A DNA stretch of 32,000 nucleotides from Natronolimnohabitans sp. A-GB9 (GTDB lineage Archaea; Halobacteriota; Halobacteria; Halobacteriales; Natrialbaceae), in contig NZ_JAVDDV010000012.1 of assembly GCF_030848565.1 (NCBI RefSeq), forward strand, positions 1 through 32,000, written 5' to 3'. Positions 1-30,425 of the stretch are shown piece by piece. The position numbers and the translations under genes are program-made. How positions within the stretch are numbered: position 1 is the stretch's first letter; each line of letters opens with the position of its first letter. The notes beneath the pieces are model-generated. The model saw only the letters and a program-made list of their open reading frames with translations, did no database searches and was not told the DNA's origin.

Positions 1-7
1 TTTAAGG
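1..7 (+). promoter_or_regulatory. TATA-like box (TTTAAGG) for a leaderless ridA transcript
   Basis: TTTAAGG at the window edge, centred about 27 nt upstream of the ATG at 31. No Shine-Dalgarno in between. Confidence 0.3.
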
Positions 8-30
8 TATCCGAACCGGTATGTGCGGAC

Positions 31-411
31 ATGAAACGCGTTATCAGCACCGACGATGCGCCGGCAGCCGTTGGCGCGTACAGTCAAGCGACGACAAACG
101 GCGACCTCCTCGTCACCGCGGGTCAGCTCCCGATGACGGCCGATGGCGACCTGCTAGACGACGAGCCCGTCGACGAGCAGACGAGACAGTGTCTCCGAAA
201 CGTCGAAGCGATCCTCGAGGCGGAGGGACTAGCGATGGAAGACGTCCTGAAGACGACCGTCTTCCTCGACGATATCGACGACTTCGAGGCGTTCAACGAG
301 GCCTACAGCGAGTTCTTCGAAGCGGAACCGCCCGCCCGCAGCGCCGTCGAGGCCGGCTCGGTTCCGAAAGGGGCAGCCGTCGAGATCGAGGCGATTGCGG
401 TCGCCGACTAA
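31..411 (+). CDS. ridA: RidA/YjgF/UK114-family reactive intermediate (enamine/imine) deaminase
   Basis: 126-aa ORF of typical family length. Family-typical segments: APAAVGAYSQA near the N-terminus and PARSAVEAGSVPKGAAVEIEAIA at the C-terminus. Acidic haloarchaeal composition. Confidence 0.9.
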   Translation: MKRVISTDDAPAAVGAYSQATTNGDLLVTAGQLPMTADGDLLDDEPVDEQTRQCLRNVEAILEAEGLAMEDVLKTTVFLDDIDDFEAFNEAYSEFFEAEPPARSAVEAGSVPKGAAVEIEAIAVAD

Positions 412-432
412 TACTGTCGGACAGCACTATTC
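409..432 (+). repeat. Half-copy of the palindromic repeat family, overlapping the ridA stop codon (TAATACTGTCGGACAGCACTATTC)
   Basis: 22 of 24 nt identical to 17969-17992. 23 of 26 nt identical to the reverse complement of 13944-13969. TAA at 409-411 is the ridA stop. Confidence 0.8.
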
Positions 433-518
433 AACGATCGGTCGCGCGACTGCGACCGTCCGCAAACGTATCGGCTCGAGTGACAACACTTACACTGTCG
501 GTCGCCTTCGGCCCCACT

Positions 519-2051
519 ATGACGACTGCACGTGGCGTCGTCGGCACGACACCGGCCGTCAGGGTATCCGGGCGGTCCGGTGACGCGACGGCGGTGCTCG
601 AGACGGCTCGAGAGGCAGCCGATACCGTCCAGATCGCCGAAGTCGGTCCGACGGGGGTCGACGCCCTCGATCCGCTCGTTATGGCCACCGTCGACGACTG
701 GACGGCGTTCGTCCCGCGGTGTTCTCCCGCCACCGTTCGGGACGTGATCGAATCGGTACGGAACGGCGAACAGCCGGCGTCGGCCTCGAGCGTCCTCTCT
801 CACGACGAGAACAGGGCGACGCTCCCGATCCCGGAGACGGGACCGCTCGCGGCCGGTGACCGTCGAGTTCTCGACGCCTGCGGCTGGGTCGTCCCGACAA
901 GCGAGGACGACTACCTCGCACGTGGCGAGCTGCTCGCTCGCGCTCGAGACGGTGACGAACTGCTGGAACGGGCGGCTGCAACCGGACTGTGCGGTCGCGG
1001 CCGCGGCGACATCGCCGCCGACGAACCGGTTGCCGACACCTGGCGAACGGTCCGGAAGGCCGACGGTGAGCCGGTCGTCGTCGTCCACGCCAACGAGGCC
1101 GATTCGCGGGCGACGGCCGACGCACTGTTGTTGGCGGCCGACCCGTTTGCCGTGATCGATCCCGCGGCCGCGGTCGCCGACGCCGTCGGCGCGCCGACGG
1201 TCGTCGTCTTCGTTACCGAGACCGAGGAGCGAGCGTATCGCAACGCGACCGCCGTCGCCGACGTCGTCGAATCCGTCGCGAACGTGTCGATCGACGTCGT
1301 CGCGGGACCCGACGAGTACGTCGCCGGCGAGCCGACGATGGCCCTCGAGGCCCTGGAGGGGAACGACCGCCTCGAGGCCCGACGCCGACCGCCGGGTCCC
1401 GAAGAGCACGGCCTCTTCGGACGACCGACCGTGTTACACACGCCGCGAACGCTCGCCCAGCTCCGACGGCTCGCGCTCGCGGACGGCGACCTCCCCGGTG
1501 TCGAGGACGATCCGGGGACGCGGCTGTTCGACGTCTGCGGCGACGTCGCCGCGACAGCGACTGTCGAACTCGCGACCGACGACACCCTCTCGACGCTCCG
1601 AGAGCCCGTTTCGCTCGAGGGTGAGCTGAAAGCCGCCGCCGTCGGCGGCGTCTTCGGTGGGCTGACGGAGACTCTCGACGTTCCGACGAACGCCGACGAG
1701 TTGACTGCGGCGGATCTCGACACTGCTGGGCCGGTCGAACTGCTAAGCCAGGATCGCTGTGCGGTCGCCTTTGCGGGTCGTCGGGCGGCGTTTGCCCACG
1801 AGGAAAACTGTGGGCGCTGTGTCCCCTGTCGCGAGGGGTCGACACAGCTCACCGAGTTGTTGCGCTCGGTGTACGGCGACGCGGACGCGATCGACGACGT
1901 CCGCGAGTTGGCTCGCGTCATGAACCGCTCGAGTCTCTGTGCGTTCGGCCGTGACGCTGCCCGGCCGGTGACGACGGCGCTGACCGCCTTCGAGTCCGAG
2001 TTTCTCGCCCACGCCGACGGGCGATGTCCCACTGGAGAGTGTTCAGAATGA
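519..2051 (+). CDS. NuoF-like (complex I 51-kDa family) iron-sulfur subunit associated with formate dehydrogenase
   Basis: In-frame ATG at 519 inside the 21..2051 ORF; upstream codons overlap ridA and are Arg-rich junk. C-terminal N3-type 4Fe-4S motif ENCGRCVPCREG...SSLCAFG. NuoF-like EYVAGEPTMALEALEG and RRRPPGPEEHGLFGRPTV segments. Its stop overlaps the fdhA start (ATGA at 2048-2051). Weak TATA-like ACTTACA about 28 nt upstream. Confidence 0.8.
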   Translation: MTTARGVVGTTPAVRVSGRSGDATAVLETAREAADTVQIAEVGPTGVDALDPLVMATVDDWTAFVPRCSPATVRDVIESVRNGEQPASASSVLSHDENRATLPIPETGPLAAGDRRVLDACGWVVPTSEDDYLARGELLARARDGDELLERAAATGLCGRGRGDIAADEPVADTWRTVRKADGEPVVVVHANEADSRATADALLLAADPFAVIDPAAAVADAVGAPTVVVFVTETEERAYRNATAVADVVESVANVSIDVVAGPDEYVAGEPTMALEALEGNDRLEARRRPPGPEEHGLFGRPTVLHTPRTLAQLRRLALADGDLPGVEDDPGTRLFDVCGDVAATATVELATDDTLSTLREPVSLEGELKAAAVGGVFGGLTETLDVPTNADELTAADLDTAGPVELLSQDRCAVAFAGRRAAFAHEENCGRCVPCREGSTQLTELLRSVYGDADAIDDVRELARVMNRSSLCAFGRDAARPVTTALTAFESEFLAHADGRCPTGECSE

Positions 2052-5000
2052 GTTCCGAGAATCCGATTCCACGCGTTCCCGACGTTACAGACCCACAACC
2101 GAGTACGCCGCTGACCGAGGACTTCGAGACCGGGACGGCAAACGACCCCGAACCCGCAGGCGCTACCGAACCCGCGACGCTGACCGTCGACGGCCGCTCC
2201 GTCACCGTCGACCCCGGCGCGACCCTGCTCGACGCCCTCGAGGAGGCGGGTGTTGCCGACGACGTACCGGCGCTGTGTCACGACGAGCACAGCGACGAGA
2301 TCGGGCCTCGCAGCACCTGTCGGACGTGTGTGGTCGAGACCGACAGTCACGGGCTGGTCCCTTCCTGTAGCTTCCCGGCCGAAGAGGGGCTGACGGTTCA
2401 CACCGACACGCCGGACGCGAGCGAAACGCGGGACGTCAACCTCGATCTGGTGTTGTCGAACCACAACCTTCGGTGTACGACCTGTGGGAAAAACGGCCGC
2501 TGTGAACTGCAGGATACGGCGATCGAACAGGAGGTCGAAGATCCCCGCTACGGTGTCTTCGACGACCGCGAGGCGTACGAACCCCTCGACGACACCTCGC
2601 CGTTCATCCAGATCGACCGCAACAAGTGCATTCTCTGTAACCGCTGTGTCGAAGCCTGCAACGACGTCCAGGTCGAGGGCGTCCTTCGTCTCGAGGGCAG
2701 CGGCTCGGACACTCGAATCGCCTTCCAAAACGACAGCGAGGCGATGGCCGCCTCGAGTTGCGTCTCCTGTGGCCACTGTGCGACGGTCTGTCCGACGGGC
2801 TCGATCACCGAAACGGGACTCGCAGATAGCGCGACGCTGCCGATTCCCGGCTTTACCCAGAAGAACTCGATCGGGACGACCGTCGACTACGACCCCGACG
2901 ACGCTGGCGCTCCCGCGACCGCGTCGGGTGCGGCGACGGCTGCCGAGGGCGGCGACGACGAGGAACTGTCGGGCGTCGCCGGCCTCATGGCACGAGCGAA
3001 ACGAAGCGCCACCGATCTCGGCGAGCGCGCCTTCCTCGAGGCCGAACACGCCGCCGAACACGTCGCCTCGAGCGTGCTCTCGGAGGGGCAGATGTTCGAT
3101 ATCGCCGAGGCAGTTTCCGACCACCGCCTCGCGGACGTCGAGGCGACGGAGACGACCTGTGGCTACTGTAGCGTCGGCTGTCGGTTCGACGTCTACACCG
3201 ACGACGAGGAAGTGCTGGGCGTGCGTCCGATCGACGCCGACCACGCGCCGGCCAACGACGGCTTCTCGACGTGTGTCAAAGGCAAGTTCGGCTACGACTT
3301 CGTCGACAGTGACGGCCGTCTCGAGCAGCCACTCGTCCGCGACGACGGCGAACTTCGCGAAGCGAGTTGGGAGGAGGCCCTCGCGCGGGTCGTCGAGGGG
3401 CTGTCGTCGATCCGTGAGGCGGCGGGGCCGGACGCGATTTCGTGTTTCGCCTCCTCGAAGTGTACGAACGAGGAGAACTACCTGATGCAGAAGTTCGCCC
3501 GGCAGGTCCTCGGAACGAAAAACATCGACAACTGCGCGCGACTGTGTCACTCCTCGACGGTGGCGGCGCTCAAACAGACCGTCGGCTACGGCGCGATGAC
3601 CAACCGGATCGAGGACGTCGCGAACACCGACTGTTACCTGATCACGGGGTCGAACACGACCGAGAGCCACCCGGTGTTGGCGACGCGGATCAAACAGAAC
3701 GTCCGCGACGGCGCGGAGCTGCTCGTCTTCGATCCGCGGAAGGTCGGCATCGCCGACCACGCCGACCAGTATACGCGCGTCGAGCCGGGCCACGACGTCG
3801 CCTGGATCAACGGGCTCACTCGGTACATCATCGAACACGACCTCCACGACGAGGCGTTCATCGAGGAGTGGACGACGAACTTCGAGGAACTGAAGCGGAA
3901 AGTCGAGCCGTTCACGCCGGCGGAAGTCGAACGCCTCTGTGGGGTCGCTCCGGACGACCTCGCCACGGCGGCGGAGACGATCGCGACCGCCGAGACGTGC
4001 GTGTTCGGGTGGGCGATGGGGATGACCCAACACTCCCACGGCACACAGAACGTGTTGGCGCTGGCGAACCTCGCGCTGGTGACCGGCCACCTCGGGAAGC
4101 CGAACGCGGGGCTGTCGCCGTTTCGTGGCCACAACAACGTCCAGGGCGGCGGTGGTGACATGGGGACGCTACCCGACAGCCTGCCGGGATACCAGCCGGT
4201 CGACGATCCCGACGTCCTCGAGGCGTTCGAAACCGTGTGGGGCGAGCGGCCCCCCAGCGAACCCGGGCTGACAGTACCGGAAGCGTTCACGGAAGCCCAC
4301 GAGGGCAACGTCCGGGGGATGTACGTGATGGGCGAGAACCCGGCGCTGTCCGAACCGGCTCTCGGCCACGCCGAGGACGCCCTCGAGGAACTGGACTTTT
4401 TGGTCGTCCAGGACGTTTTCCTGACGGAGACGGCCGAGCACGCCGACGTCGTGTTGCCGGCGGCGAGTTTCGCCGAGAAGGCGGGGACGTTTACGAACAC
4501 CGAGCGCCGGGTCCAGTTGGTGAATCAGGCGCTGTCACCGCCGGGGGCGGCCCGCCAGGACTGGGCGATCCTCCAGGCGCTTGCGACTCGCTTTGGCTAC
4601 GAGTGGGACTACGAGTCGCCAGCCGAGATCATGGACGAGATCAACGAGCTGGTGCCGATTTACGGCGGGATTTCCCACGAGCGCCTCGAGTCGGAGGGCG
4701 GGCTGCAGTGGCCGTGTCGGGACGCGGCGGATCCGGGGACGCCGTATCTCTACGCGGACGGGTTCAACTTCGAGGACGGGAAGGCCCGGTTCGTGCCGGC
4801 CGACCTCGGCCAGCCGGGCGAGTTGCCCGACGAGGAGTATCCGTTGACGCTGACGACGGGACGGGTGCTGTATCACTTCCACACCGGGACGCTGACGCGG
4901 AAGGTCGACGGGATCATGTCCCACGTCGGCGAGAGCTTCGTCGAGATCAACCCCGAGACGGCCGATCGACTCGGTGTTTCGGACGGCGAGACCGTGACGG

Positions 5001-5239
5001 TCGAATCACGTCGAGGTGCGATCACCGTCCGCGCACAATTGACTGACCGCGTCGATCCGGGCGTCGTCTTCATTCCGATGCACTTCGCCGCCGGCGCGGC
5101 CAACGAACTCACCGGCGAGTCGTTCGACCCCATCAGCGGCATCCCCGAGTACAAGGTCTCGAGCGTGCGGATTCCCTCCGAGGGCGAGCTGGATATCGAC
5201 GGCTCCTCGAGTGCGCCGGTAGCGGCCGACGACGACTGA
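2048..5239 (+). CDS. fdhA: Formate dehydrogenase alpha subunit (molybdopterin oxidoreductase with N-terminal 2Fe-2S and 4Fe-4S domains, Cys-type active site)
   Basis: 2Fe-2S Cys pattern ALCHDEH...CRTCVVE...PSC. NuoG-like HNLRCTTCGKNGRCELQ. Two ferredoxin motifs, CILCNRCVEAC and CVSCGHCATVCP. MopB cluster TCGYCSVGCRF. Active-site region NCARLCHSSTV carries Cys with no in-frame stop. The track ORF starts at 2024, but the ATG at 2048 gives ATGA coupling to the upstream gene. Confidence 0.9.
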   Translation: MSSENPIPRVPDVTDPQPSTPLTEDFETGTANDPEPAGATEPATLTVDGRSVTVDPGATLLDALEEAGVADDVPALCHDEHSDEIGPRSTCRTCVVETDSHGLVPSCSFPAEEGLTVHTDTPDASETRDVNLDLVLSNHNLRCTTCGKNGRCELQDTAIEQEVEDPRYGVFDDREAYEPLDDTSPFIQIDRNKCILCNRCVEACNDVQVEGVLRLEGSGSDTRIAFQNDSEAMAASSCVSCGHCATVCPTGSITETGLADSATLPIPGFTQKNSIGTTVDYDPDDAGAPATASGAATAAEGGDDEELSGVAGLMARAKRSATDLGERAFLEAEHAAEHVASSVLSEGQMFDIAEAVSDHRLADVEATETTCGYCSVGCRFDVYTDDEEVLGVRPIDADHAPANDGFSTCVKGKFGYDFVDSDGRLEQPLVRDDGELREASWEEALARVVEGLSSIREAAGPDAISCFASSKCTNEENYLMQKFARQVLGTKNIDNCARLCHSSTVAALKQTVGYGAMTNRIEDVANTDCYLITGSNTTESHPVLATRIKQNVRDGAELLVFDPRKVGIADHADQYTRVEPGHDVAWINGLTRYIIEHDLHDEAFIEEWTTNFEELKRKVEPFTPAEVERLCGVAPDDLATAAETIATAETCVFGWAMGMTQHSHGTQNVLALANLALVTGHLGKPNAGLSPFRGHNNVQGGGGDMGTLPDSLPGYQPVDDPDVLEAFETVWGERPPSEPGLTVPEAFTEAHEGNVRGMYVMGENPALSEPALGHAEDALEELDFLVVQDVFLTETAEHADVVLPAASFAEKAGTFTNTERRVQLVNQALSPPGAARQDWAILQALATRFGYEWDYESPAEIMDEINELVPIYGGISHERLESEGGLQWPCRDAADPGTPYLYADGFNFEDGKARFVPADLGQPGELPDEEYPLTLTTGRVLYHFHTGTLTRKVDGIMSHVGESFVEINPETADRLGVSDGETVTVESRRGAITVRAQLTDRVDPGVVFIPMHFAAGAANELTGESFDPISGIPEYKVSSVRIPSEGELDIDGSSSAPVAADDD

Positions 5240-5321
5240 TACGGACTGCTGTCCCGATTACCCGCCGATCGCCGCCCCCGTCCTGGCGATCGCCGGTCGG
5301 TGACGACAGGAGACCGTATGA
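5237..5321 (+). repeat. 85-nt nested-hairpin repeat element (MITE-like or structured 3' UTR) beginning with the fdhA stop codon
   Basis: TGATACGGACTGCTGTC...GACAGGAGACCGTATGA. Terminal inverted repeats pair 14/16. Inner GC-rich palindrome built around GGCGATCGCC. Loop GCCCCCGTCCT. Same length as 17421-17505 and about 80% identical to it by eye. Confidence 0.8.
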
Positions 5322-5437
5322 GCGTACCCACCGGTCTCAGGATGTGTTTCGGACCCGGTAGAACCGAACTTCTCCGTCAGTTGATCTGTCGTGTTAGGCG
5401 GTGGCTCCTGTATCGAATCCTCAGTCTCGATTGCTTC

Positions 5438-5453
5438 ACACTGATATCAGTGT
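5438..5453. repeat. Perfect 16-bp palindrome ACACTGATATCAGTGT in the fdhA/purU convergent spacer
   Basis: The sequence equals its own reverse complement. It lies in a locally lower-GC stretch between two gene ends. Confidence 0.6.
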
Positions 5454-5532
5454 TATTCACTTCACAGCACGATCGTCGGTACGCGCCTCTCGATGTCGAT
5501 CTAGTGGCCGCCGATGAGAAATACGAGCGCGT

Positions 5533-6507
5533 TCAGTCGTCCGCGACGGCGGTCGTCTCCCCGTCGGCGACGAGTTCCTCGCGGTTGTCGATCGGTCGAC
5601 TGGGATTTGCCTGATCCAGCGCCGTCGGTGCGCCGAGTTGCGTGTCGGCGCCGTCCGGATCGGCGAGTTTCGTCTGGCCGTCGTCGACGACGAGTTCGTC
5701 CTCGAGGTGGAGTCGGATCGCTTCCAGGAGGGCGTCGGCCTCGAGGGGCTGGCCGCGTTCTTTGAGATCCGCTTCGGACGCGCCAGCGGGAACGTTGAAC
5801 GCCCGCTGGGTGATGATCGGCCCCTGATCGAGGTCCGTGGTAACGTAGTGGGCCGTCACCCCGGCGATCCGAACGCCCGCCTCGTGGGCCTGTCTGTACG
5901 CCGCTGCGCCGGGGAACGCCGGAAGCAGGCTCGGATGGACGTTGATGATCCGCTTCTCGTACCGGAAGACGACCTCCGGGGAGAGGATCTGAATGTACCG
6001 GGCCAGCGCGATGAGGTCGATCTCGTACTCCGAGAGGAGTTCGAGCAGTTCGCCCTCGTCGGGCGTCCCGTTCTCGTCGCCAATGTCGTAGAACGGGACG
6101 TCGTAGGCCGCTGCGAGCGGCCGAAGGATATCGTGGTTCCCGATCACGACTTCGATGTCGGCGCCGAGTTCGTCGTTCTCCCAGGCCTCGAGCAGCGCCT
6201 CCAGACAGTGACTCTCTTTGGTGACGAGGACGGCGAGGGACTGATTCTCGCAACTCGAGGGGAACCGAACCTGGACGTCGACGGCGAACTCGTCGGCGAG
6301 GTCGTCCAATTCCTCGCGGAACCGATCCCGTGAGACCGTCATCTCGTCGATTTCGACCTGGAGCGTCGTTCGACACGTTCCCTCCCGGACGGCCTGATCG
6401 AGGTCGACGATGTCGACGTCGTGTTCGAACAGCAGGTCGGTCGCGTCGGCGATGACTCCCGAATCCTCGTCGCCGACGATCGTAATCTCGGTTCGGTCAC
6501 GGCTCAT
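5533..6507 (-). CDS. purU: Formyltetrahydrofolate deformylase
   Basis: Start at MSRDRTEITIVG (ATG 6507-6505), preceded by GGAGGTG. N-terminal ACT-like domain, then a formyltransferase core: VLVTKESHCLEALL, IINVHPSLLPAFPGAAAYRQAHEAGVRIAGVTAHYVTTDLDQGPII. About 45 aa of acidic C-terminal extension. Confidence 0.9.
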   Translation of the reverse strand: MSRDRTEITIVGDEDSGVIADATDLLFEHDVDIVDLDQAVREGTCRTTLQVEIDEMTVSRDRFREELDDLADEFAVDVQVRFPSSCENQSLAVLVTKESHCLEALLEAWENDELGADIEVVIGNHDILRPLAAAYDVPFYDIGDENGTPDEGELLELLSEYEIDLIALARYIQILSPEVVFRYEKRIINVHPSLLPAFPGAAAYRQAHEAGVRIAGVTAHYVTTDLDQGPIITQRAFNVPAGASEADLKERGQPLEADALLEAIRLHLEDELVVDDGQTKLADPDGADTQLGAPTALDQANPSRPIDNREELVADGETTAVADD

Positions 6508-6513
6508 CGGTTC

Positions 6514-6520
6514 CACCTCC
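6514..6520 (-). promoter_or_regulatory. Shine-Dalgarno GGAGGTG for purU
   Basis: Reverse complement of CACCTCC, 6 nt upstream of the purU ATG. Complementary to the conserved 16S 3' end (..CACCUCC..). Implies a leadered or co-transcribed mRNA. Confidence 0.6.
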
Positions 6521-6750
6521 AGGCGTTGTGCTCGCGTTCGTTCGTCGGCCGTCGTCGATCGATCCTGGATACACGTACCGGTCGGTCTGCCGCCTCGAGG
6601 GACGGCTCGCGCTGTGCTAGTGACATCCACTCACCCGTTTCAGACCGCCGCTAATGAACCTTGGTCCTCCTGAAATCGCGGAGAGAGGACGTGTTTGCTC
6701 TCACCATTCGTGTCGATAGAATGACGGGTTGAAAAGTGGTCGCCAGAATC

Positions 6751-7968
6751 CTACGACTCCGTTCGCAGGTAGTCGACGACTGCGGTCGGCTCGCCCTCGA
6801 GGCCACCACCCTGTGCGAACGTCGGCCCGCCGCCGCCACCGCCACCGAACGTCGCCGTAACGTCGTCGACGACCTCGCTCGCGTCCGTCTCGCCGGTCGT
6901 ACCGACGACCACGAACGCGTTCTCGTTTCCGTTTCCACCGGTTAGTGCGACGACGTCGCCGACGTCGCCCGCGAGTTTCCGCACGCGATCCGAGACGTCG
7001 TTAGGTCCGATCCCGTCGACCGCGAGCTCGCCGACGACCCACTCCTGGCCGGCTTTCGAGACGGTGTCGTCGACCAGCGACTCGAGACGTGCCTCGAGCA
7101 GTTGCTCGCGCAGCGTCTCGAGTTCCGATTCGAGAGCCGCGTTCGCGTCGACGACGCTGCTCGCACGATCGGGAAGTGTTCCGACGTTCGTATCCAGTGC
7201 TCGAGCAGCGCGGGTCGCGGCCCGCCGTTCGTCGAGCCGTGCGCGAACGGCCGCCGGGCCGACCGCGTACTCGACGCGGACGAGTCCCGCACCCGGGTTC
7301 GACACCTCGAGGACGGTGACGGGACCGATCTCGATGGTGTTCTCGACGTGGGTGCCGCCGCAGGCGGCGATATCCCAGTCGTCGATCTCGACGAGACGGA
7401 CCGTTTCGGCCCCCTCGGTCCCACCGGTCTCGTTGAAGACGATCTCGTCGCGGTCCCGCGCCTGCGCCGCGTCCATCTCTCGCCAGGAGACGTCCCGCGA
7501 CTCCCAGACGACCTCGTCGACCAGCCGCTGGAGGGTGAGTTCGTTCACCTCGTCTGGGTCCCTGTCGGTCTCGAAGTCGAGTCGCACTTTCTCGGAATCG
7601 ATGCCGAAGCCGCCGTAGCCGTGTTCGTCGAACAGTTCGCGGCCGGCGCCGTACAGGACGTGACTGGCGGTGTGGGCTCGCATACAGTAGGTCCGGAACT
7701 CGTCGTCGATCGAGCCGGTGACGGTGTCGCCGGCCTCGAAATCGGGTTCCGCTTCGAGCGTGTGAACCGTCTCACCGTCCCGGCTTTGGACGTCGACGAC
7801 GTCGATGCCGCCGATCGTCCCGCGGTCGGCCGGCTGTCCGCCTCCCTCGGCGTAGAAGTACGTCTCCTCGAGTCGGACCTCGGTGTCGTCGATCGCCCGT
7901 ACTGTCGCCTCGAACTCCCTCAGGTACGGCTCCGCCGCTGCACGGTTGTCTGTCGTTTCGGACGCCAT
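6751..7968 (-). CDS. alaX: Alanyl-tRNA editing protein, AlaX-L type (AlaRS second-additional domain plus DHHA1-like C-terminal domain)
   Basis: Start at MASETTDN (ATG 7968-7966); upstream track codons are Arg/Cys-rich. Zinc motifs RAHTASHVL (HxxxH) and ACGGTHV (CxxxH). Gly-rich FGGGGGGGPTFAQGGG tail. A T-tract (ACTTTTCAA) follows the stop. Confidence 0.85.
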   Translation of the reverse strand: MASETTDNRAAAEPYLREFEATVRAIDDTEVRLEETYFYAEGGGQPADRGTIGGIDVVDVQSRDGETVHTLEAEPDFEAGDTVTGSIDDEFRTYCMRAHTASHVLYGAGRELFDEHGYGGFGIDSEKVRLDFETDRDPDEVNELTLQRLVDEVVWESRDVSWREMDAAQARDRDEIVFNETGGTEGAETVRLVEIDDWDIAACGGTHVENTIEIGPVTVLEVSNPGAGLVRVEYAVGPAAVRARLDERRAATRAARALDTNVGTLPDRASSVVDANAALESELETLREQLLEARLESLVDDTVSKAGQEWVVGELAVDGIGPNDVSDRVRKLAGDVGDVVALTGGNGNENAFVVVGTTGETDASEVVDDVTATFGGGGGGGPTFAQGGGLEGEPTAVVDYLRTES

Positions 7969-8018
7969 GGTCACGAGTGTCGGGTTACACCGTGATAAAC
8001 CGTGTGGGCTACCATCTC

Positions 8019-8041: not shown

Positions 8042-8057
8042 CCGTGCCACGTTTGGT

Positions 8058-10466: not shown

Positions 10467-10484
10467 CGGCTGATCGGTCCCGTA

Positions 10485-12434
10485 TCAGGCGTCGACGGCG
10501 AACGAGGACGTCGAGACGGTCGGATAGCGCTCCTCGAGCTCCGCTGCCTCCTCGGGGAGGACGGCGGCGACGACGTGTTCGGCGTGGCGTTCGAAGAACT
10601 CCAGGAGTCCGCGGATCCGGTTCGCGTCGAGCATTTCGACGGCGTCGATGACGATCACCGGAAGCTCGTTTGCGACGTCGTGTGCGAGATAGCCAGCGAA
10701 GGCGACGACGAGCCCGATCACCTCGCGTTCGCTCTTGCTCAGGTTCTCGACGGTGTCCTCGTAGGCAGCGCCGTCCTCGCTCGAGCGAACGACGTGCAGT
10801 TCGAACTCGGTTGCGGACAGCGAGTCGTCGGCAGTCGTAAGCCGTTCGATCCAGACGCGCTCGATGTTCCGATACTCGAGCCTGTCGAGTACCCGCTGCA
10901 TCGATTCGTTGAACGTCGTGACCAGCTCGCGCTCGAGCGACTCGATCCGATCTCGCTGTTCGCGAAGCTGCGTGGCCACCGAATCGCGCTCGTCCTCGAG
11001 GTCGTCGCGTTTCGCGAGTTCGTCCTCGAGGTGTGCGATCTCGTCTTCGATGTCGCTCAGCTCGTTCTCGTGTTGTCCCCGCTCGTACTCGAGATCGCTC
11101 ACGTCGTTGTAGAGTTCGAGCAGTTCGTCGTCCCGTTCGTCGAGCTCCTCGGCGTCTGCCTGTAGCGAGTCGATCTCGTCGTCGAGCGACGCCGTACGCT
11201 CGCGGAGCTCGGCCAGTTTCGTTTCGCGGCGGTCGATCTCGTCCTCGATCGACGCTGCTTTCTCCGCGAGTCGCTCGCGCTCGTCGCGCTGGCGCTCGAG
11301 TCGTCGTTTCTCCTCCTCGAGTGACTGAATGCGATCGGTGAGCGTCTCACGCTGGGTGCGCTTTTCCTGGAGAATCTCCCGCACGACGCGAACTTGTTCG
11401 GCGATCTCCGCTCGTTCGACGGTGTTGCCACACGTCCAGCAGGTGATCGACCGTGACGACGGATCGAGTTCGGCGACGATCTCGTCCGATTTCATCTCCT
11501 CGGGGATCTCCTTCTCGTCGTCTAACAGCTGGTCGTTCATCTCGACGATCGGACTCAACGCGTTTATCGTGGTCGACAGCTGCTGTTTCTGGTGGTGGAG
11601 CTGCTCGATCTCTGCTTCGATCGCATCGACGTCTCCCGTTCCCGACGCGTCCGTCGACTCGAGTTCCTCGCGTCGCTCGCGGACGTCCTCGAGTTCGTCC
11701 TCGAGCGACCGGATCGCGTCCCGTTGGGTTTCGATCCGGTTGCGGACGGTCTCGCGCTTGGATCGCGTCTCCTTGAGTTGGTCGAAGACATCGTGTCCAC
11801 CCGTCTCCGCTGCCGTCTCTCGCTCGTCGATCGCCTCGCGTTTCTCCCGAAGCGAGGCCTCGATCTCCTCGATCTCGTCTCGGACCGTATTCGCACGCGT
11901 TCGCAGCGTCGGGAGTCGGTCTTCCATGCGGTCTACCTCCGCGAGGCGATCGTCGAGTTCGTCTTTTCGGGCTTTGAGTCGCTCGATCTCCGCTTCGATC
12001 GCGTCGGTATCAACGGGTCGCATCAACAGCTCGTAGAGATCCCCGTCCGTGAGGACGTTCCGCCGAATCGGATTCGTCTCGTCGAGGGCGACGAACAGCT
12101 CACAGAGGTCGGCGCGGTCGGAAACTCGATCCGCGTCGGTGACGACAGGCTCCCCGTTTCGGTTCTCGATCTCGAGGGCGTACTCGTCGTCGGCCGTTCG
12201 AAGCGTTACCGATCCGGACTCGGCGTCGCTTTTGATCGGCGGTGCGGGGCCGCCGAGTACGCCGGCCAGCCCGCGCAGAAACGACGACTTGTTCGACGCG
12301 TTCTCACCCGAGAGAAGCGTCACGCCCTCTGAAAGCGTCATTTCTCCCTCGGAGATGCCGCCGACGTTCCGAACGCTGACGTGTACCTCTCCCAACTCGC
12401 TTTTCGATTCCGGATCCGGACTATTTACTGACAT
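10485..12434 (-). CDS. Archaea-specific SMC-related coiled-coil protein (Sph3-like)
   Basis: 649 aa. N-terminal P-loop-like LLSGENASNKSS. About 450 aa of highly charged coiled coil with a central CWTCG (CxxC, hook-like). C-terminal head carries LSKSEREV and VIVIDAVEMLD. Lies immediately downstream of the rdfA-like gene. Confidence 0.75.
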   Translation of the reverse strand: MSVNSPDPESKSELGEVHVSVRNVGGISEGEMTLSEGVTLLSGENASNKSSFLRGLAGVLGGPAPPIKSDAESGSVTLRTADDEYALEIENRNGEPVVTDADRVSDRADLCELFVALDETNPIRRNVLTDGDLYELLMRPVDTDAIEAEIERLKARKDELDDRLAEVDRMEDRLPTLRTRANTVRDEIEEIEASLREKREAIDERETAAETGGHDVFDQLKETRSKRETVRNRIETQRDAIRSLEDELEDVRERREELESTDASGTGDVDAIEAEIEQLHHQKQQLSTTINALSPIVEMNDQLLDDEKEIPEEMKSDEIVAELDPSSRSITCWTCGNTVERAEIAEQVRVVREILQEKRTQRETLTDRIQSLEEEKRRLERQRDERERLAEKAASIEDEIDRRETKLAELRERTASLDDEIDSLQADAEELDERDDELLELYNDVSDLEYERGQHENELSDIEDEIAHLEDELAKRDDLEDERDSVATQLREQRDRIESLERELVTTFNESMQRVLDRLEYRNIERVWIERLTTADDSLSATEFELHVVRSSEDGAAYEDTVENLSKSEREVIGLVVAFAGYLAHDVANELPVIVIDAVEMLDANRIRGLLEFFERHAEHVVAAVLPEEAAELEERYPTVSTSSFAVDA

Positions 12435-13339: not shown

Positions 13340-13399
13340 CGATACTGCCGGACAGCAGCCACGCGGCCGATCGGTGCATCGTGCTGTCCGGCAGTATGA
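13340..13399. repeat. Inverted pair of repeat-family half-copies forming a perfect 16-bp stem
   Basis: ATACTGCCGGACAGCA (13342-13357) and TGCTGTCCGGCAGTAT (13382-13397) are exact reverse complements separated by a 24-nt loop. The right arm ends in TGA. Confidence 0.85.
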
Positions 13400-13864: not shown

Positions 13865-13943
13865 GACAGATCTTTTCCCATCGGACTACTGATAGACAGC
13901 GATTCGGCTCACCACTCCTCGAGGACTGTCGTGCGACCGAGCG

Positions 13944-13969
13944 TTGCATAGTTCTGTCCGACAGTATGA
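13944..13969 (-). repeat. Half-copy of the repeat family, minus orientation
   Basis: The reverse complement TCATACTGTCGGACAGAACTATGCAA matches 409-434 at 23 of 26 positions. Confidence 0.75.
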
Positions 13970-14186: not shown

Positions 14187-14843
14187 ATGTCGATAACGGT
14201 CAAAGCATACATCGAACACGACGAGCTCGCCCTCGTCCCGACGCTACGGCGCCTCGAGGATATCGAGATCGAAGTGATAACGCAAGCGAACACCGACCCG
14301 GACTCCGACGTCTTTCCGTTTCTCATCGAGTACGACGATCCCGACGAACTGGAGGCGTATCTCGACCGCGATCCGACTATCGACAGGTACGAACTCGTCG
14401 ACGCAAACGACGGGACGTTCATCTACTACATCGAACATCCGAACGGAACGCAGTTGTTGAGTCCCGTCGTCACGAGTGTCAACGGGTTCATGCTGCGTGC
14501 GGAGACCAGACGCCGCGGCTGGTTCGTCCAACTCCAGTTGCCGGGTCGAGATGCGCTCAATACGATCTGGGAGTACGCAGCGGAGTGTGACATGAACTTC
14601 GACATCATCGAGGTGTATGGGAACACGGATACCGGAACGAACGTCTCCTTCGGGCTGACTGACGAACAGGTCGAGGCACTCACGACGGCCTATCGATGTG
14701 GCTATTTCAACGAACCGCGGGACATGGCACTGAGCGACGTCGCCGACGAGATCGGTGTCTCCTCGACGGCGATGAGCGGTCGGCTTCGGCGTGGAATGCG
14801 AAACCTGATCTCCGCAGCGCTGATCGACGAGGACACCGAGTGA
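14187..14843 (+). CDS. Bat-type HTH_10 transcriptional regulator (bacterio-opsin activator-like DNA-binding protein)
   Basis: C-terminal LTDEQVEALTTAYRCGYFNEPRDMALSDVADEIGVSSTAMSGRLRRGMRNLI is the HTH_10 signature. ATG at 14187 (MSITVKAYIEH) preferred over the GTG at 14154. Confidence 0.85.
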   Translation: MSITVKAYIEHDELALVPTLRRLEDIEIEVITQANTDPDSDVFPFLIEYDDPDELEAYLDRDPTIDRYELVDANDGTFIYYIEHPNGTQLLSPVVTSVNGFMLRAETRRRGWFVQLQLPGRDALNTIWEYAAECDMNFDIIEVYGNTDTGTNVSFGLTDEQVEALTTAYRCGYFNEPRDMALSDVADEIGVSSTAMSGRLRRGMRNLISAALIDEDTE

Positions 14844-14890
14844 TGCGGCCTTCTGTCGTCACTGATACCGTCGGATAGCAGTCCGTATGA
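14841..14890 (+). repeat. Short composite copy of the repeat family (both terminal arms, no central hairpin), starting with the regulator's stop codon
   Basis: TGATGCGGCCTTCTGTCGTCAC + TGATACCGTCGGATAGCAGTCCGTATGA. The arms align to the left and right arms of 17421-17505. CGTTTTC follows. Confidence 0.7.
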
Positions 14891-17420: not shown

Positions 17421-17505
17421 TGATACGGTCTTCTGTAGTCAATTACCGCCGATCGCCGACCCCGTCCTGGCGATCGGCGGTAACTAGTTACAGCAGTCCG
17501 TATGA
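17421..17505 (+). repeat. 85-nt nested-hairpin repeat element, 15 nt after the aor stop codon
   Basis: Outer arms GATACGGTCTTCTGTA / TACAGCAGTCCGTATGA. Inner perfect 15-bp stem TTACCGCCGATCGCC (17443-17457) / GGCGATCGGCGGTAA (17469-17483). Loop GACCCCGTCCT. Twin of 5237-5321. Confidence 0.85.
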
Positions 17506-17551
17506 ACTGCTGGGTCGAATCCTGCGGTGTCGTCCGATTCGACCCAGCAGT
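17506..17551 (+). terminator. Perfect 15-bp stem-loop directly following the 85-nt element
   Basis: ACTGCTGGGTCGAAT (17506-17520) and ATTCGACCCAGCAGT (17537-17551) are exact reverse complements with a 16-nt loop. The arm shares ACTGCTG and ATTCGA with the repeat family. Confidence 0.5.
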
Positions 17552-17592
17552 CGACGGGTGGAACGGTACTAAACTGGCTGGTCACCGTCCGT

Positions 17593-17620
17593 GAGACCGT
17601 ATGATACGGACTGCTCCGAC
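17593..17620. repeat. Back-to-back junction of two repeat arms sharing one TGA (GAGACCGTATGATACGGACTGCTCCGAC)
   Basis: The left part matches the right end of 5237-5321 (GAGACCGTATGA). The right part matches its left end (TGATACGGACTGCT). Confidence 0.65.
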
Positions 17621-17659: not shown

Positions 17660-17971
17660 ATGGCACGCATCGACGCAGCCGAGTTACTGCCGGCAGAGCG
17701 GATCAGACGAAAGGCCCTCGAGGGCGAGATCACGCAGTTACACCGCGGCGATCCCCACGCAGCGGAGGGCGATACCTTCGTCATCGAGGAGACGGTCTTC
17801 GAGGTCACGAACGTCGAGCATCGACGATTGGGCGAACTCACCGACGAGGATGCCCGTGCGGAGGGGTCGCCGAACCTCGAGGCGTACAAGCGCCGCATCG
17901 AAGCGACACACGACACCGAATGGGACGACGAGAGCGAGGCGGTGTTACACGAGTTCGAGCCGCGCTCGTGA
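17660..17971 (+). CDS. ASCH domain-containing protein (PUA-like fold)
   Basis: 103 aa. ASCH-like pattern: GDTFVIEETVFEVTNVEHRRLGELTDEDARAEGSPNLEAYKRRI. Confidence 0.7.
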   Translation: MARIDAAELLPAERIRRKALEGEITQLHRGDPHAAEGDTFVIEETVFEVTNVEHRRLGELTDEDARAEGSPNLEAYKRRIEATHDTEWDDESEAVLHEFEPRS

Positions 17972-17992
17972 TACTGTCGGACAGCACGATTC
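17969..17992 (+). repeat. Half-copy of the repeat family overlapping the ASCH stop codon (TGATACTGTCGGACAGCACGATTC)
   Basis: 22 of 24 nt identical to 409-432. Sits in the 36-nt convergent spacer before the HTH_10 gene end. A CGAGGGC...GCCCTCG stem follows. Confidence 0.8.
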
Positions 17993-18007
17993 GAGGGCAA
18001 GACTCGA

Positions 18008-19944: not shown

Positions 19945-21255
19945 ATGAGCGGCGAGTACGCACAGGGAATCCGTCGGAACTGGCAGCAGTTCACCCTGCA
20001 GATCGTCACGGTCTTTGCCGTCGGGCTCACGATGGGCTCCCAGCGCAACGTGGTGCCCATCATGGGCGAGGAGACCTTCGGCGTCGAGTCGCTTCTCGTG
20101 ATCGGCTCCTTCGTCGTGAGTTTCGGGATCGTCAAGGCGATCCTCAACCTGTATTCGGGGAAGTGGGCCGACGCCTACGGCCGGAAACCGATCCTGATCG
20201 CGGGCTGGGTCGCCGCCGTTCCGATTCCCTTTATCCTCATCTTCGCGCCGAGTTGGAGCTGGATCGCGGTCGGGAACGTCCTGCTCGGGATCAACCAGGG
20301 CGTTGCCTGGAGCATGAGCATGATCTCGAAGATCGAACTCGCCGGCCCCGACGAGCGTGGGCTCGCCGCCGGGCTCGACGAGGCCTTTGGCTACACCGGC
20401 GTCGCCGCCGGGGCGTGGCTGACGGGCGTGATCGCCGCTCAGTACAGCCTCCGGCCGGAGCCGTTCTACTTCCTCGCGGCGGTGATCGTCGTCGCCCTGC
20501 TGATCGCCGTCGTCCTGATCGAGGAAACGCTGCCCTACGCGAAAGCGGAAGCGGAAGGACTCGACGACGACGGCGTCGAAGCCGACGGCGGAAAGAACGA
20601 GGCCGACCTCTCCTTTACCGAGATCGTCAAGCGTGCGACCTACAAGGACCGGACGCTGTTTACGGCCGCACAGGCGGGCCACGTCGAGAATTTCGTCGAT
20701 ACGCTCGTCTGGATCGCCTTCCCGCTGTTCCTGGTCGCTCAGGGCTTAGACGTCGCTCAGGTGGGAGTCGTCGTCGGCGTCCACAGCGCCGCGTACTTCC
20801 TGCAGGTCTACACCGGCCGACTCGGTGACCGTGTCGGGCGCAAGCCGCCGATCGTCGCCGGCTTCTTCCTCGCCGGCGCGGGCGTCCTCGGGATGGTGCT
20901 CGTCGAGGGGTATTACCTCTGGATCCTCTTTTCGGGGCTTTCGGGCGTCGGGATGGCACTGCACTACCCCAATCTGATCGCGGTCGCCAGCGACGCGGCC
21001 CACCCCCTGTGGCGCTCGACCGGCCTCGGTGTCTACCGGCTCTGGCGTGATCTGGGCTACGCCGTTGGGGCCATCCTCATCGGCCTCTCGGTCGATCTGC
21101 TCTCGATCGAGGCCGCCTTCTACGGTACCGCCATCGCGATGTTCCTCTCCGGCGGACTGGTCGTAATCTGGATGGAGGAGACCCACCCCGACTTCGGCAC
21201 CCACGAGCCGCCGTCGGTCGACCTCGAGGCCAGCAAAACCGGGTCCGAGGATTGA
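19945..21255 (+). CDS. MFS transporter (12 TM)
   Basis: 436 aa. MFS loop motif GKWADAYGRKPIL after TM2 and its repeat GRLGDRVGRKPPI in the second half. Starts 3 nt after the upstream stop. Confidence 0.85.
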   Translation: MSGEYAQGIRRNWQQFTLQIVTVFAVGLTMGSQRNVVPIMGEETFGVESLLVIGSFVVSFGIVKAILNLYSGKWADAYGRKPILIAGWVAAVPIPFILIFAPSWSWIAVGNVLLGINQGVAWSMSMISKIELAGPDERGLAAGLDEAFGYTGVAAGAWLTGVIAAQYSLRPEPFYFLAAVIVVALLIAVVLIEETLPYAKAEAEGLDDDGVEADGGKNEADLSFTEIVKRATYKDRTLFTAAQAGHVENFVDTLVWIAFPLFLVAQGLDVAQVGVVVGVHSAAYFLQVYTGRLGDRVGRKPPIVAGFFLAGAGVLGMVLVEGYYLWILFSGLSGVGMALHYPNLIAVASDAAHPLWRSTGLGVYRLWRDLGYAVGAILIGLSVDLLSIEAAFYGTAIAMFLSGGLVVIWMEETHPDFGTHEPPSVDLEASKTGSED

Positions 21256-21275
21256 CTGCCGGACAGCAGTCCGTA
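21253..21275 (+). repeat. Repeat-family copy starting with the MFS stop codon (TGACTGCCGGACAGCAGTCCGTA)
   Basis: Contains the CTGCCGGACAGCAGTCCGTA core, which joins both sub-blocks of the family. Confidence 0.7.
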
Positions 21276-21420
21276 CCAGTCGGTGCGACACAGCCACGAT
21301 CGGTCTGCGGTTTCGCCGGGTCACAGCACGGGGAACGTCTCCACCGCTCGCATTCGTCTGTCTACTGTTGCGAGCGAGGCAAACACTTATCGAATACACC
21401 GGTCTATGTTAGCGTGGATC

Positions 21421-29811: not shown

Positions 29812-30425
29812 ATGGAACGCTATGATCTAACAACCGATGTCTGGAGGCTCGATGCGACGGACTTTCCAGCCAACGAGCTGCTCACGAAACGTGTGCGATT
29901 TCTCCTCCAGTACGCCATCTTCGCCCCATCGAGTCACAACTCTCAACCCTGGGAGTTCGTCATTGATACTTCCGGACAACACGATGCACACACCGATCGC
30001 ACTCGAGACGCGATCGGGTGTTTACTGACTGTTGTCCGGTAGTATGAGAACGAACAACTAAGATCCACGCAGACGACGATCGCTGGCTTGAGGTGGTGCT
30101 ATCGAGAATTTCTGTATTGCTGCCGAACGGTTCGACCTCGATTTCGATACCGAATATCACAACGATACACCACCAGTCGTCATCACGCTTCAGCCCGATA
30201 GTGAGCCATCATCCGACCGTCCGCCAGAACTGTTCAAGATCGGTCAGATCTTCGAACGCATAGCTTTGACTGCGACCAGCAACGACGTCGCTGCCCACCC
30301 GATGAGCCAGGAACGGGGTGAAACCCCGCGACGGCAGCATTTTGGCATCAGAACGAACCGAAATCGAACGTCGTACCGACGACCATCGTGAGCCGACTTA
30401 CCGTCTCGAGTATTCGAATCGCGAA
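29812..30425 (+). pseudogene. Decayed nitroreductase-family gene (frameshifts, premature stop, probable internal deletion)
   Basis: Frame 1 gives RFLLQYAIFAPSSHNSQPWEFVI, then a stop at 30040-30042. Homology continues in frame 3 (KIHADDDRWLEVV, from 30060) and frame 2 (GGAIENFCIAAERFDL...GQIFERIALTATSNDVAAHPMSQE, 30092-30391). Confidence 0.6.

Follow-up and report, generated by a model that had tools for sequence, protein, structure and literature searches.

Among IS5/PIF-Harbinger (PHIS) transposons, the NuwaII group uses the target C|TNA|G (PMC4482050), and IS5 elements of the IS1031 group prefer TNA (PMC1676026). In haloarchaea, the SMRs of Haloquadratum walsbyi are 79-112 bp long, have inverted ends and no transposase of their own (e.g., HqIRS41, 79-80 bp), and were reported to make strain-specific insertions, to target other mobile elements and to leave no target duplication (PMC3119063). 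The PATEs of Haloquadratum, which derive from IS200/IS605, have subterminal hairpins and no terminal inverted repeats, make no duplication and require a fixed target of 4-5 nt, which lies to the left only. The literature that we searched gave general accounts of haloarchaeal MITEs, PATEs and SMRs, and nothing on elements with the ends TACTGYCGGACAG or TACGGWCTNCTGT or on the targeting of stop codons. These motif strings are also absent from the supplements of the SMR paper (PMC3119063), and a bias toward exact stops or acidic codons is not among the properties described for IS5/PHIS families in that literature.

Here we analyzed a 32,000-nt stretch of DNA from Natronolimnohabitans sp. A-GB9 (hereafter the window), in which an initial annotation had described a 26-nt palindromic motif at the stop codons of six genes. 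The results indicated that the motif is very probably the terminal inverted repeat of short, hairpin-shaped, non-autonomous transposons (MITEs) of about 22-117 bp. The family is one of MITEs with a noteworthy stop-codon bias.

Anatomy of the elements in the window

A search of the window for ATACTGYCGGACAG with at most two mismatches gave 9 sites, compared with a mean of 0.28 and a maximum of 2 in shuffled sequences (about 30-fold over chance), which established the recurrence of the motif as real. The six contacts with stop codons that had been listed were all correct when compared with the ORF map and the Pfam assignments, and the further copies proposed at 13340-13399, 13944-13969 and 17593-17620 proved genuine. 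However, what had been described as a single unit combines two related types of arm, A (TACTGYCGGACAG...) and B (TACGGWCTNCTGT...), and the supposed free-standing 26-mer constitutes the inverted-repeat termini of whole hairpin elements (Table 1). The inverted repeats lie at the extreme ends, as TACTGYCGGACAG...CTGTCCGRCAGTA in type A and TACGGWCTNCTGT...ACAGNAGWCCGTA in type B. The elements are 44-79 nt long in the window and 67-117 nt elsewhere, and each consists of a single hairpin without an ORF or other coding capacity, the internal sequence being wholly different from subfamily to subfamily. The window holds about 12 copies per 32 kb, including four complete elements with TGA or CGA as the left flank and TGA as the right flank. 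The intact copies fold at -36 to -48 kcal/mol (z -4.8 to -8.2), while the half elements at stops cannot fold into a hairpin (409-500 and 17969-18010, z about -0.8).

Table 1. Elements, arms and fragments of the family in the window (folding energies in kcal/mol; E values from the external profile)
Position	Feature	Ends and flanks	Gene context	Folding or profile match
409..470	A-type element	left target-site copy TAA 409-411; left arm intact (TACTGTCGGACAGCA...); right arm eroded (...AAACGTA, ends 470), then TCG	TAA is the ridA stop	E=1e-6 on 409-447
5237..5321	complete B-type element	TGA 5237-5239, 79-nt hairpin 5240-5318, TGA 5319-5321	left TGA is the fdhA stop	-40.7, z=-4.9
10467..10487	B-type arm remnant CTGATCGGTCCCGTA		abuts the SMC-like stop TCA 10485-10487, minus strand; takes up the 18-nt spacer from the folCP stop to the minus-strand SMC-like stop	
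13340..13399	complete short A-type element	CGA, 54-nt hairpin, TGA	rdfA start to EamA start spacer, away from gene ends	-36.2, z=-4.8
13890..13969	A-type element	left arm eroded, begins after TGA 13890-13892; right arm 13931-13966 intact, then TGA	EamA stop 26 nt before the element	right arm E=1e-7
14841..14890	short B-type element	TGA 14841-14843, 44 nt, TGA; internal TGA-TACCGTCGGATAGCAGTCCGTA unit	left TGA is the HTH_10 stop	
17421..17505	complete B-type element	TGA, 79-nt hairpin, TGA	begins 14 nt past the AFOR stop (TAG 17404-17406)	-47.7, z=-8.2
17506..17551	third-family hairpin ACTGCTGGGTCGAATC...	16-bp perfect stem	inserted right at the right-hand TGA of 17421..17505; relative in L126, 354-400	z=-7.7
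17589..17617	two back-to-back B-type end fragments	...GAGACCGTA TGA TACGGACTGCTCC, one TGA in common	upstream of the ASCH start	
17969..17994	solo A-type left arm	TGA 17969-17971	TGA is the ASCH stop; then the remainder of a 36-nt spacer up to the stop of the convergent HTH gene, TCA 18008-18010	E=6e-6
21253..21287	A-type left arm without its first two bases	TGA 21253-21255	TGA is the MFS stop	E=0.002
29964..30047	complete variant A-type element	TGA, 78-nt hairpin TACTTCCGGACAACA..., TGA	intergenic	-40.9, z=-6.8
409, 13340-13399, 13893-13966, 17969, 21253, 29964-30047	A arms			
5237-5321, 10467-10487, 14841-14890, 17421-17505, 17589-17617	B arms			

An external profile, constructed only from the arms of copies outside the window, recovered the arms at 13969(-), 410(+), 17969(+), 13399(-), 13341(+) and 21255(+), all at E<=0.002, and scored 14863 at E=0.11. 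It detected neither of the degenerate copies that had been suspected at 12460-12510 and 13879-13905; the stretch 13890-13930 is at most the eroded partner arm of the arm at 13931-13969. The region from 21.3 to 32 kb had been thought free of copies, but a complete one with TGA/TGA flanks is located there (29964-30047, z=-6.8). The internal TGA-TACCGTCGGATAGCAGTCCGTA unit of 14841..14890 may be a nested 22-nt copy, and a simple short B-type element is likewise possible. Junctions of the end-TGA-end kind, as at 17589..17617, are also present in L158 and L168.

Flanking duplications and dispersal

The flank in the window is nearly always TGA, and the window alone cannot tell a duplication from a TGA borne by the element. 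A flank-free scan of hypersaline metagenomes, with both arms fixed, yielded 68 complete elements of 67-79 nt at 62 unique sites. Identical 3-nt flanks were found in 36 of the 62 copies (32 TGA/TCA, 3 TAA/TTA and 1 ACT; p=1e-48 against 1/64), and TA/TA flanks in another 12, which comprise one whole subfamily. Flank pairs TCA/TCA and TTA/TTA were also found in annotated plasmids. These flanks are true target-site duplications, as they are matching direct repeats that differ between copies. The variable duplications, together with the stops retained in element-free orthologues (see below), bear out an earlier suggestion that the motif belongs to an element with an insertion preference for TGA/TAA.

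Identical 78-79-nt copies occupy at least three different sites each (L128/L140/L154 and L146/L177/L182), and the ends of different elements can have one TGA in common, both in metagenome loci and at 17589-17617 in the window; both observations are evidence of recent mobility. Copies are present in Natrialbaceae, Haloferacaceae, Haloarculaceae and Halococcaceae, with 13-nt ends identical across haloarchaeal orders, and the MITE family is widespread in Halobacteria. A contig scan with the 15-mer TACTGYCGGACAGCA returned mostly chance bacterial matches, with 5 useful haloarchaeal loci among the matches listed. Scans of viral contigs yielded either no match or matches to unrelated coding sequence of low-GC phages, and a phage collection gave no match. 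A rule linking orientation to the strand of the TGA was also considered and dropped: the counts within polar subfamilies were 12:3, 7:2 and 3:1, and no robust rule emerged because the homologous arm lies on opposite sides in different subfamilies.

Orthologous gene ends without the element

Comparison of orthologous gene ends revealed the same stop and no element for five of the six genes. The fdhA orthologue in L193 ends with the identical GCCGACGACGAC TGA and is element-free, and the element-free ridA orthologues end at the same codon, TAA in L193 and TAG in L192. In L115 and L194, TGA stands at the same position both in the HTH_10 orthologues, which are element-free, and in the SMC-like orthologues, which are followed by unrelated spacers. 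All four MFS orthologues (L203-L206; proteins 93-94% identical) end in ...GAC TGA, and that of L204 has a 3′ coding end nearly identical to that of the window, element-free. At this gene end the window has an A-type copy, L203 has a B-type one that lies 24 nt farther downstream, and L204-L206 have no copy. More generally, the copies of the window are missing from the syntenic regions of three relatives.

Since element-free orthologues keep the same stop codon, the element did not donate it, and the idea that the motif supplies the stop is refuted for these five genes, whose stops are only abutted. For the sixth gene, ASCH, the evidence is consistent with this result; the final ~9 nt ahead of TCA 18008-18010 resemble native flank in L204. 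BLAST of the reconstructed empty junction of each element gave no base-precise empty site among the fetched loci, and the reconstructed fdhA empty site showed no significant similarity to L193 downstream of the TGA; the sister-genome DNA past the stop is too diverged for base-by-base alignment. As judged from these gene ends, the element appears to land on a pre-existing TGA or TAA and to regenerate the stop rather than donate it.

Stop-codon bias and target context

In the metagenome set, where gene ends were called by a GC3-based heuristic and no gene finder, 21 of the 62 copies lie directly at a coding-frame stop. Of the copies flanked by TGA, about half are placed exactly on one. For TSA-flanked copies from high-GC loci, the share rises to 20/29 (p about 1e-10), compared with an expected stop share of non-coding TSA sites of 12.4%, which rests on a periodicity-based coding mask (79% coding), or of 15% with half-site weighting. 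In RefSeq-annotated haloarchaeal plasmids, 3/6 copies start at an annotated stop. The excess at stops is ~5-fold above the prediction of a TGA target plus the loss of coding insertions. No copy among those counted lies 1-30 nt past a stop, and the interval 1-100 nt past a stop is at control level (4/21 vs 13%), without enrichment.

The codons that precede the stop were also examined. In stop-associated copies, the last codon is Asp/Glu in 13/16 (23% expected) and the last two are Asp/Glu in 8/16 (5% expected, p=3e-7), a preference replicated in independent cases at 6/9 and 3/9, respectively. The favoured gene ends are GAC/GAG-TGA. The Asp/Glu preference points to an extended target preference. 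At copies away from stops, C occupies -1 in 10/16 and G occupies +1 in 11/16.

We tentatively propose, as one possibility, that the integration machinery itself homes to stops, reading TGA together with the Asp/Glu codons (GAC/GAG) at the typical end of haloarchaeal proteins and duplicating the stop. Such homing would explain why about half or more of the copies lie exactly on stops and none just downstream, and why ...D/E-D/E-stop ends are ten times commoner than expected in the genes hit. If true, it would represent a 'safe-harbour' strategy adapted to hosts whose proteome is acidic.

It seems rather unlikely that the bias of these MITEs results only from TGA specificity and from purifying selection that removes insertions into genes and promoters. 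In favour of this reading, stops are the sole in-frame TGAs where a duplicating insertion spares the protein, contact with a stop is not obligatory (the subfamily with internal AAAACCTCGAAC... has 0/9 copies at stops), and the heuristic calling of genes may inflate the number of 'intergenic' TGA sites. Against it, 20/29 copies lie at stops, although stops make up 12.4% of non-coding TSA sites, the first 1-30 nt past stops hold no copies and the interval 1-100 nt is at control level, and the Asp/Glu codon preference is not expected from selection that keeps the ORF intact.

Alternative origins of the hairpins

The initial annotation had also offered a termination or 3′-end processing signal, or a protein-binding site at gene ends, as the origin of the motif. 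It is highly improbable that the hairpin is such a cis signal, whether terminator, 3′-end processing or stabilising element or protein-binding site, maintained at gene ends by its function. The great stability of the intact copies, the sharp enrichment exactly at the stop rather than across the next 100 nt, and the identity of the 13-nt ends across orders would suit a signal. E. coli REP hairpins <=~15 nt from the stop lower translation by stalling terminating ribosomes, which also counts for it. However, the same gene ends in syntenic relatives have no copies, and copies also occur in promoter-side spacers (13340-13399 and 17589-17617) and in nested or tandem arrangement. Moreover, the flanking triplets co-vary like insertion duplications, the subfamilies differ completely in internal sequence, and many of the stop-sited copies in the window are half elements unable to form the hairpin. 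No copy falls on any of the 15 terminator-like sites in 1-20000, no T-run of >=4 follows a copy in the window, so that the hairpin-plus-T-run arrangement of an intrinsic terminator (in archaea, an oligo-T tract) is lacking, and Rfam 15 gave 0 matches in the window at the gathering threshold.

Units of the IS200/IS605 type or REP-like units, moving as a single strand to the 3′ side of a fixed TGA without duplication and carrying a terminal TGA of their own, are scarcely credible: the nearly invariant TGA on both sides in the window, the hairpin shape, the single TGA common to tandem copies and the report of Haloquadratum SMRs without target duplication or known transposase (PMC3119063) would fit them, but the two flanks change together (TTA/TTA in L126, L184, L188 and L198; TA/TA in a whole subfamily), which a fixed element-borne TGA cannot yield, the inverted repeats, instead of forming subterminal hairpins, sit strictly at the termini and extend over the full element, and a GTAG-type REP head is missing. 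Assignment to PATEs was rejected on the same features, terminal inverted repeats and duplicated flanks co-varying on both sides, and assignment to REP/REPIN on the lack of a GTAG head in the elements, the variable duplications and the lack of a transposase among the window ORFs (Pfam).

Proposed mechanism and search for the transposase

For the MITE family, we infer an enzyme, a staggered-cut chemistry and a cause of the additional stop bias as follows. A putative transposase supplied in trans would bind the 13-15-bp element ends; the shape of the target suggests a DDE enzyme that is IS5/PIF-Harbinger-like or IS630-like. Integration would take place at 5′-T(G/C)A-3′ and less often at TTA/TAA, with C|TSA|G as the preferred context, and in one subfamily at TA. 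Repair of the staggered cut would duplicate the triplet and leave the copy bracketed as TGA...TGA. If that triplet were a stop codon, its upstream copy would remain in frame and the protein would be unchanged, whereas insertions at the far commoner intragenic TGA triplets would be lost. Integration or retention would additionally favour stops after Asp/Glu codons.

The search for a partner covered ~0.6 Mb of haloarchaeal loci and the surroundings of the plasmid copies, and revealed no autonomous element with matching ends; the loci held no long arm pairs. A Pfam scan of window ORFs revealed no transposase, and the surroundings of a DDE_3 fragment in L194 held no inverted repeats of relevance. 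A 0.9-kb repeat in L133, considered as an IS, proved to be an internal duplication of a 721-aa ORF. The ends of haloarchaeal IS630 elements (ISNpe3/ISNma7-like), TA|TAGTAWYCGKTAGAA, match the MITE end at 11/17 positions, which is a lead and not proof, and an ISHma11-like IS5 end matches it at CTGCCG, a partial similarity comparable to that of IS630.

Comparison with known systems

For annotation, these results mean that a strikingly regular gene-end motif in haloarchaeal genomes is best taken for transposon ends and not for a regulatory signal, and that the TGA past the hairpin is a duplication scar. A 3-bp T-S-A duplication turns stop codons into harmless landing sites, and the overrepresentation of copies at stops and at acidic C-termini is a hint that more than the triplet is recognised in the target. 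Intact copies put a hairpin of -36 to -48 kcal/mol at 0-3 nt past the stops of ordinary metabolic genes, and thus provide natural pairs with and without the hairpin for studying the response of archaeal ribosomes and the 3′-end machinery. The copies, dense in A-GB9 but without counterparts in the syntenic regions of three relatives, are also lineage-specific markers for strain typing.

REP/BIME sequences of enterobacteria are likewise abundant extragenic palindromes, often in head-to-tail clusters and frequently directly after stops; they differ in having a conserved GTAG head, a link to the RAYT (Y1) transposase and no target duplication. The SMRs can be likened to the present elements by description, being haloarchaeal, 80-110 bp long and prominent in their inverted ends. 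MITEs of the IS630/Tc1-mariner type, such as Correia of Neisseria and RUP of pneumococcus, have TA/TA flanks, as one subfamily here does, and are similar in size (about 80-150 bp), whole-length hairpin shape and intergenic position, often at gene ends; Correia elements have promoter, terminator or RNase III roles. The partly similar ends of haloarchaeal IS630 elements are a lead in the same direction, whereas most copies here duplicate three bases and not TA. MITEs of the IS5/PHIS type, including Tourist-like ones, resemble the elements in being short and non-coding, with terminal inverted repeats and a 3-bp T-N-A duplication. On the other side, N in the present elements is mostly G or C, with a strong bias, their length of about 22-117 bp is far below that of typical Tourist MITEs, and no IS5-type partner with matching ends was found. 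The C...G flank preference of the elements matches the C|TNA|G target of NuwaII and the TNA target of the IS1031 type (PMC4482050, PMC1676026).

Structure of the repeat elements in the window

The ORF map and Pfam analysis confirmed the genes named in the initial annotation, and the AFOR, RidA and MFS proteins encoded in the window (G+C content 63.5%) were 100% identical to Natronolimnohabitans sp. A-GB9 entries. The recurrence of the motif was likewise borne out, as ATACTGYCGGACAG with at most 2 mismatches occurred 9 times in the window vs 0.28 in shuffles, and each of the six stop codons said to contact the motif was directly followed by its TAC... on the same strand. Its description as a 26-nt palindrome had to be abandoned, since outward reading revealed whole-length inverted repeats. 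[quoted passage not shown]

Four complete elements were found, each forming one hairpin (54-79 nt, -36 to -48 kcal/mol, z -4.8 to -8.2), and one of the four carries CGA instead of TGA as its left flank. The stretch from 21.3 to 32 kb, in which no copy had been recognised before, holds a complete element that had been overlooked. Two related arms were distinguished, the A arm (TACTGYCGGACAG...CGATCGG) and the B arm (TACGGWCTNCTGT...CCGATCGCC); what had been called the extended core proved to be the first 22 nt of the A arm's long form, the opposite strand of which resembles the B end. A profile built from copies outside the window only re-found the A arms at E<=0.002 and did not detect the possible degenerate copies proposed at 12460-12510 and 13879-13905.

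Coordinates of genes, elements and associated features in the window and in comparison loci (L-numbers)
Feature	Locus	Position	Remarks
RidA	window	31-411	
FdhA, formate-dehydrogenase-like	window	2024-5239	
SMC-like ATPase	window	10485-12434	minus strand
EamA transporter, half-size	window	13454-13864	136 aa
HTH_10 regulator	window	14154-14843	
ASCH protein	window	17660-17971	
MFS transporter	window	19945-21255	
Complete element	window	5237-5321	TGA both sides
Complete element	window	13340-13399	left flank CGA, right TGA
Complete element	window	17421-17505	TGA both sides
Complete element	window	29964-30047	TGA both sides
Half elements or remnants	window	409, 10467, 13890, 14841, 17589, 17969, 21253	
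Third hairpin family	window	17506-17551	ACTGCTGGGTCGAATC..., 16-bp perfect stem, z=-7.7
Relative of third hairpin family	L126, metagenome contig	354-400	
Decayed element	window	17969-18010	
Decayed element	L196, Halopiger pHALXA02	405-462	
Joined element ends	L189, Haloarcula marismortui pNG700	1507-1523	TACTGTCGGCAGTA, 14 nt
Perfect palindrome	window	5439-5452	CACTGATATCAGTG, 14 nt
Perfect palindrome	L192	15288-15301	identical
Palindrome	L193	~15320	degenerate
GAYAACAYTTACAC	window	482-495	
GAYAACAYTTACAC	L192	10527	
GAYAACAYTTACAC	L193	10422	
ISNpe3-like IS630	L199	~818-1878	transposase frameshifted
ISNpe3-like IS630	L200	~818-1878	transposase frameshifted
ISNpe3-like IS630	L201	~525-1578	transposase frameshifted

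The right-hand TGA of the complete element at 17421-17505 is precisely where the third hairpin family begins. Twice, in genomes unrelated to each other, the whole spacer between convergent stops consists of a decayed element, whose left TGA is the plus-strand stop and whose right TCA is the minus-strand stop. The EamA gene sits between two A-type elements (13340-13969) and is absent from the rdfA/HTH_10 spacer of syntenic loci of Haloterrigena salifodinae (L115, 17384-17809) and Natronococcus sp. CG52 (L194); a homologous 141-aa EamA adjoins a B-type element in Natronorubrum thiooxidans (L192, 7789-8323) and is missing between the same neighbours in Natronococcus sp. CG52 (L193). EamA may have travelled with the elements as a passenger gene. 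CACTGATATCAGTG is conserved within the convergent fdhA/purU spacer, the flanking parts of which are not. GAYAACAYTTACAC, kept in three genera 5' of the NuoF-like gene after ridA, is probably a promoter or operator, and it is where the native spacer restarts past the 409-470 element.

Target-site duplications and mobility

The decisive evidence came from metagenomes, which were scanned for the two fixed A arms without constraint on the flanks (TACTGYCGGACAG N25-55 CTGTCCGRCAGTA); the scan yielded 68 complete elements, 67-79 nt long, from 62 unique sites. The 62 copies showed matching direct repeats that varied from copy to copy, namely TGA/TGA or TCA/TCA (32), TAA/TTA pairs (3), an ACT pair (1) and TA/TA (12, nearly all of one internal-sequence subfamily), and the remainder were mostly one position off a matching pair. 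The 3-nt flanks were identical in 36/62 vs 1/64 expected (p=1e-48). Annotated plasmids provided a TTA/TTA pair (Halobiforma) and TCA/TCA pairs (Natrinema, Natrononativus). Such co-variation on both sides is the hallmark of staggered-cut integration. An element just carrying its own TGA could not yield TTA/TTA or TA/TA. The subfamily with internal GCAGTGATACATTCCGCCGGG (L127, L133, L135, L142, L155, L156, L171, L175 and L186) shares its 15-nt ends with the others and is always flanked by TA/TA, not T-N-A/T-N-A.

The same ends, flanked by TGA...TGA, were present in Natronorubrum, Halobellus and Haloarchaeobius genomes, and also occurred on plasmids of Natrinema, Natrononativus, Halobiforma, Halopiger, Halococcus, Halobellus and Haloarcula. 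Identical copies at at least 3 unrelated sites indicate recent bursts. One TGA is often common to the ends of different elements (L158, L168, window 17589-17617), as expected if each insertion makes new preferred targets. On pNG700, a nucleobase:cation symporter gene has its annotated stop (GAC GAC GAC TGA) immediately followed by two joined element ends, which resemble the footprint of an excision or deletion.

Stop codons at element ends

A stop was scored as real when the in-frame codons upstream of it numbered at least 60 (at least 30 if the ORF leaves the contig) and showed haloarchaeal GC3 periodicity. By this measure, 21/62 metagenome copies abut a stop, whereas in the same loci stops made up only 2.7% of all TGA/TCA triplets and 6.3% of those outside called genes. 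Under a stricter periodicity mask (79% coding) in loci of at least 62% G+C, 20/29 TGA-flanked copies lay on a stop vs 12.4% of non-coding TGA/TCA sites (p ~1e-10), and the excess survived weighting for flanking-base preference. Among RefSeq-annotated plasmids, 3/6 copies start at an annotated stop (Haloarcula marismortui pNG700, Natrononativus plasmid 1 and Halopiger pHALXA02). The excess is sharp: no copies occurred 1-30 nt past a stop, and counts over 1-100 nt were at control level. Stop-codon occupancy is base-exact and roughly fivefold that expected under neutrality.

The suggestion that the motif supplies the stop was contradicted by syntenic regions of relatives that lack the elements, where orthologues end at the same codon. 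The fdhA gene of L193 ends in the identical GCCGACGACGAC TGA, ridA ends in TAA (L193) or TAG (L192), HTH_10 and SMC-like genes end in TGA (L115, L194), and MFS genes (L203-L206, proteins 93-94% identical) end in ...GAC TGA, with the 3' coding end in L204 nearly identical to that of the window and the element absent. For ASCH, compared at the protein level only, homologues of 106-109 aa finish at the same position to within a few residues. The downstream spacers were too diverged to align base by base, and no base-precise empty site was present among the loci compared. At the MFS gene end, the window has an A-type copy, Salinadaptatus (L203) has a B-type copy 24 nt downstream, and three other genomes have none, which implied independent hits rather than an inherited signal. 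The HTH/rhodanese-MBL/MFS cassette shows 93-94% protein conservation across several Natrialbaceae genera in differing surroundings; in L205 and L206 the HTH (HVO_A0563-type) gene and its neighbour converge with their stops directly adjoining, as TGATCA (~3637-3642).

Of the explanations offered initially, an insertion element preferring TGA/TAA is the right one, given the co-varying flanks and the same stops in element-free orthologues. A protein-binding site at gene ends and a termination or 3'-end processing signal are unsupported: no Rfam family matched in the window, no terminator-like hairpin-plus-T-run coincided with a copy, and half of the stop-abutting window copies are unable to form a hairpin.

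Target context and acidic C-terminal codons

Copies away from stops preferred C at -1 (10/16, p=0.01) and G at +1 (11/16, p=0.003), with GT at +1/+2 in 8/16, giving the target C|T-S-A|G. In stop-associated copies, Asp/Glu was the last codon in 13/16 (vs 23% of called TGA-stop genes), the penultimate codon in 12/16 (vs 19%) and both in 8/16 (vs 5%, p=3e-7). The genes, from metagenome loci L122-L188, are mutually unrelated; the Asp/Glu-ending set also includes the fdhA, MFS, HTH_10 and ridA ends of the window. The effect recurred in 9 independent cases (six window and three plasmid genes) at 6/9 (p=0.006) for the last codon and 3/9 (p=0.008) for the last two. An AC|TGA half-site accounts for part of the last-codon effect and not for the penultimate codon, and it is mainly on this account that recognition of more than the triplet is suspected. 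Genuine target recognition, rather than selection, is a possible but somewhat doubtful source of the stop-codon bias. The two respects in which this family rises above the routine are its degree of stop-codon occupancy and its preference for genes whose C-terminal codons are acidic.

Comparison with known systems

No autonomous element with these ends was found in ~0.6 Mb of haloarchaeal loci and the surroundings of the plasmid copies. The haloarchaeal ISNpe3-like IS630 end (TA|TAGTAWYCGKTAGAA) has 11/17 positions in common with the MITE end and, like one MITE subfamily, this IS makes TA duplications; CTGCCG is common to the ISHma11-like IS5 end and the MITE end. These likenesses of sequence may serve as leads only. 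In L200, the IS630 directly abuts an IS5-family element with CTGCCG in its end. Our elements have the defining features of neither IS200/IS605-derived PATEs nor REPs. Among described haloarchaeal objects, the nearest in size and shape, as compared by description, are the Haloquadratum 'small mobile repeats', especially the 79-80-bp HqIRS41, which unlike our elements are reported without duplication. The C|T-S-A|G target matches C|TNA|G, the target of the NuwaII group of the PIF/Harbinger-IS5 superfamily (PMC4482050), and agrees with the preference of IS1031-type IS5 elements for TNA (PMC1676026).
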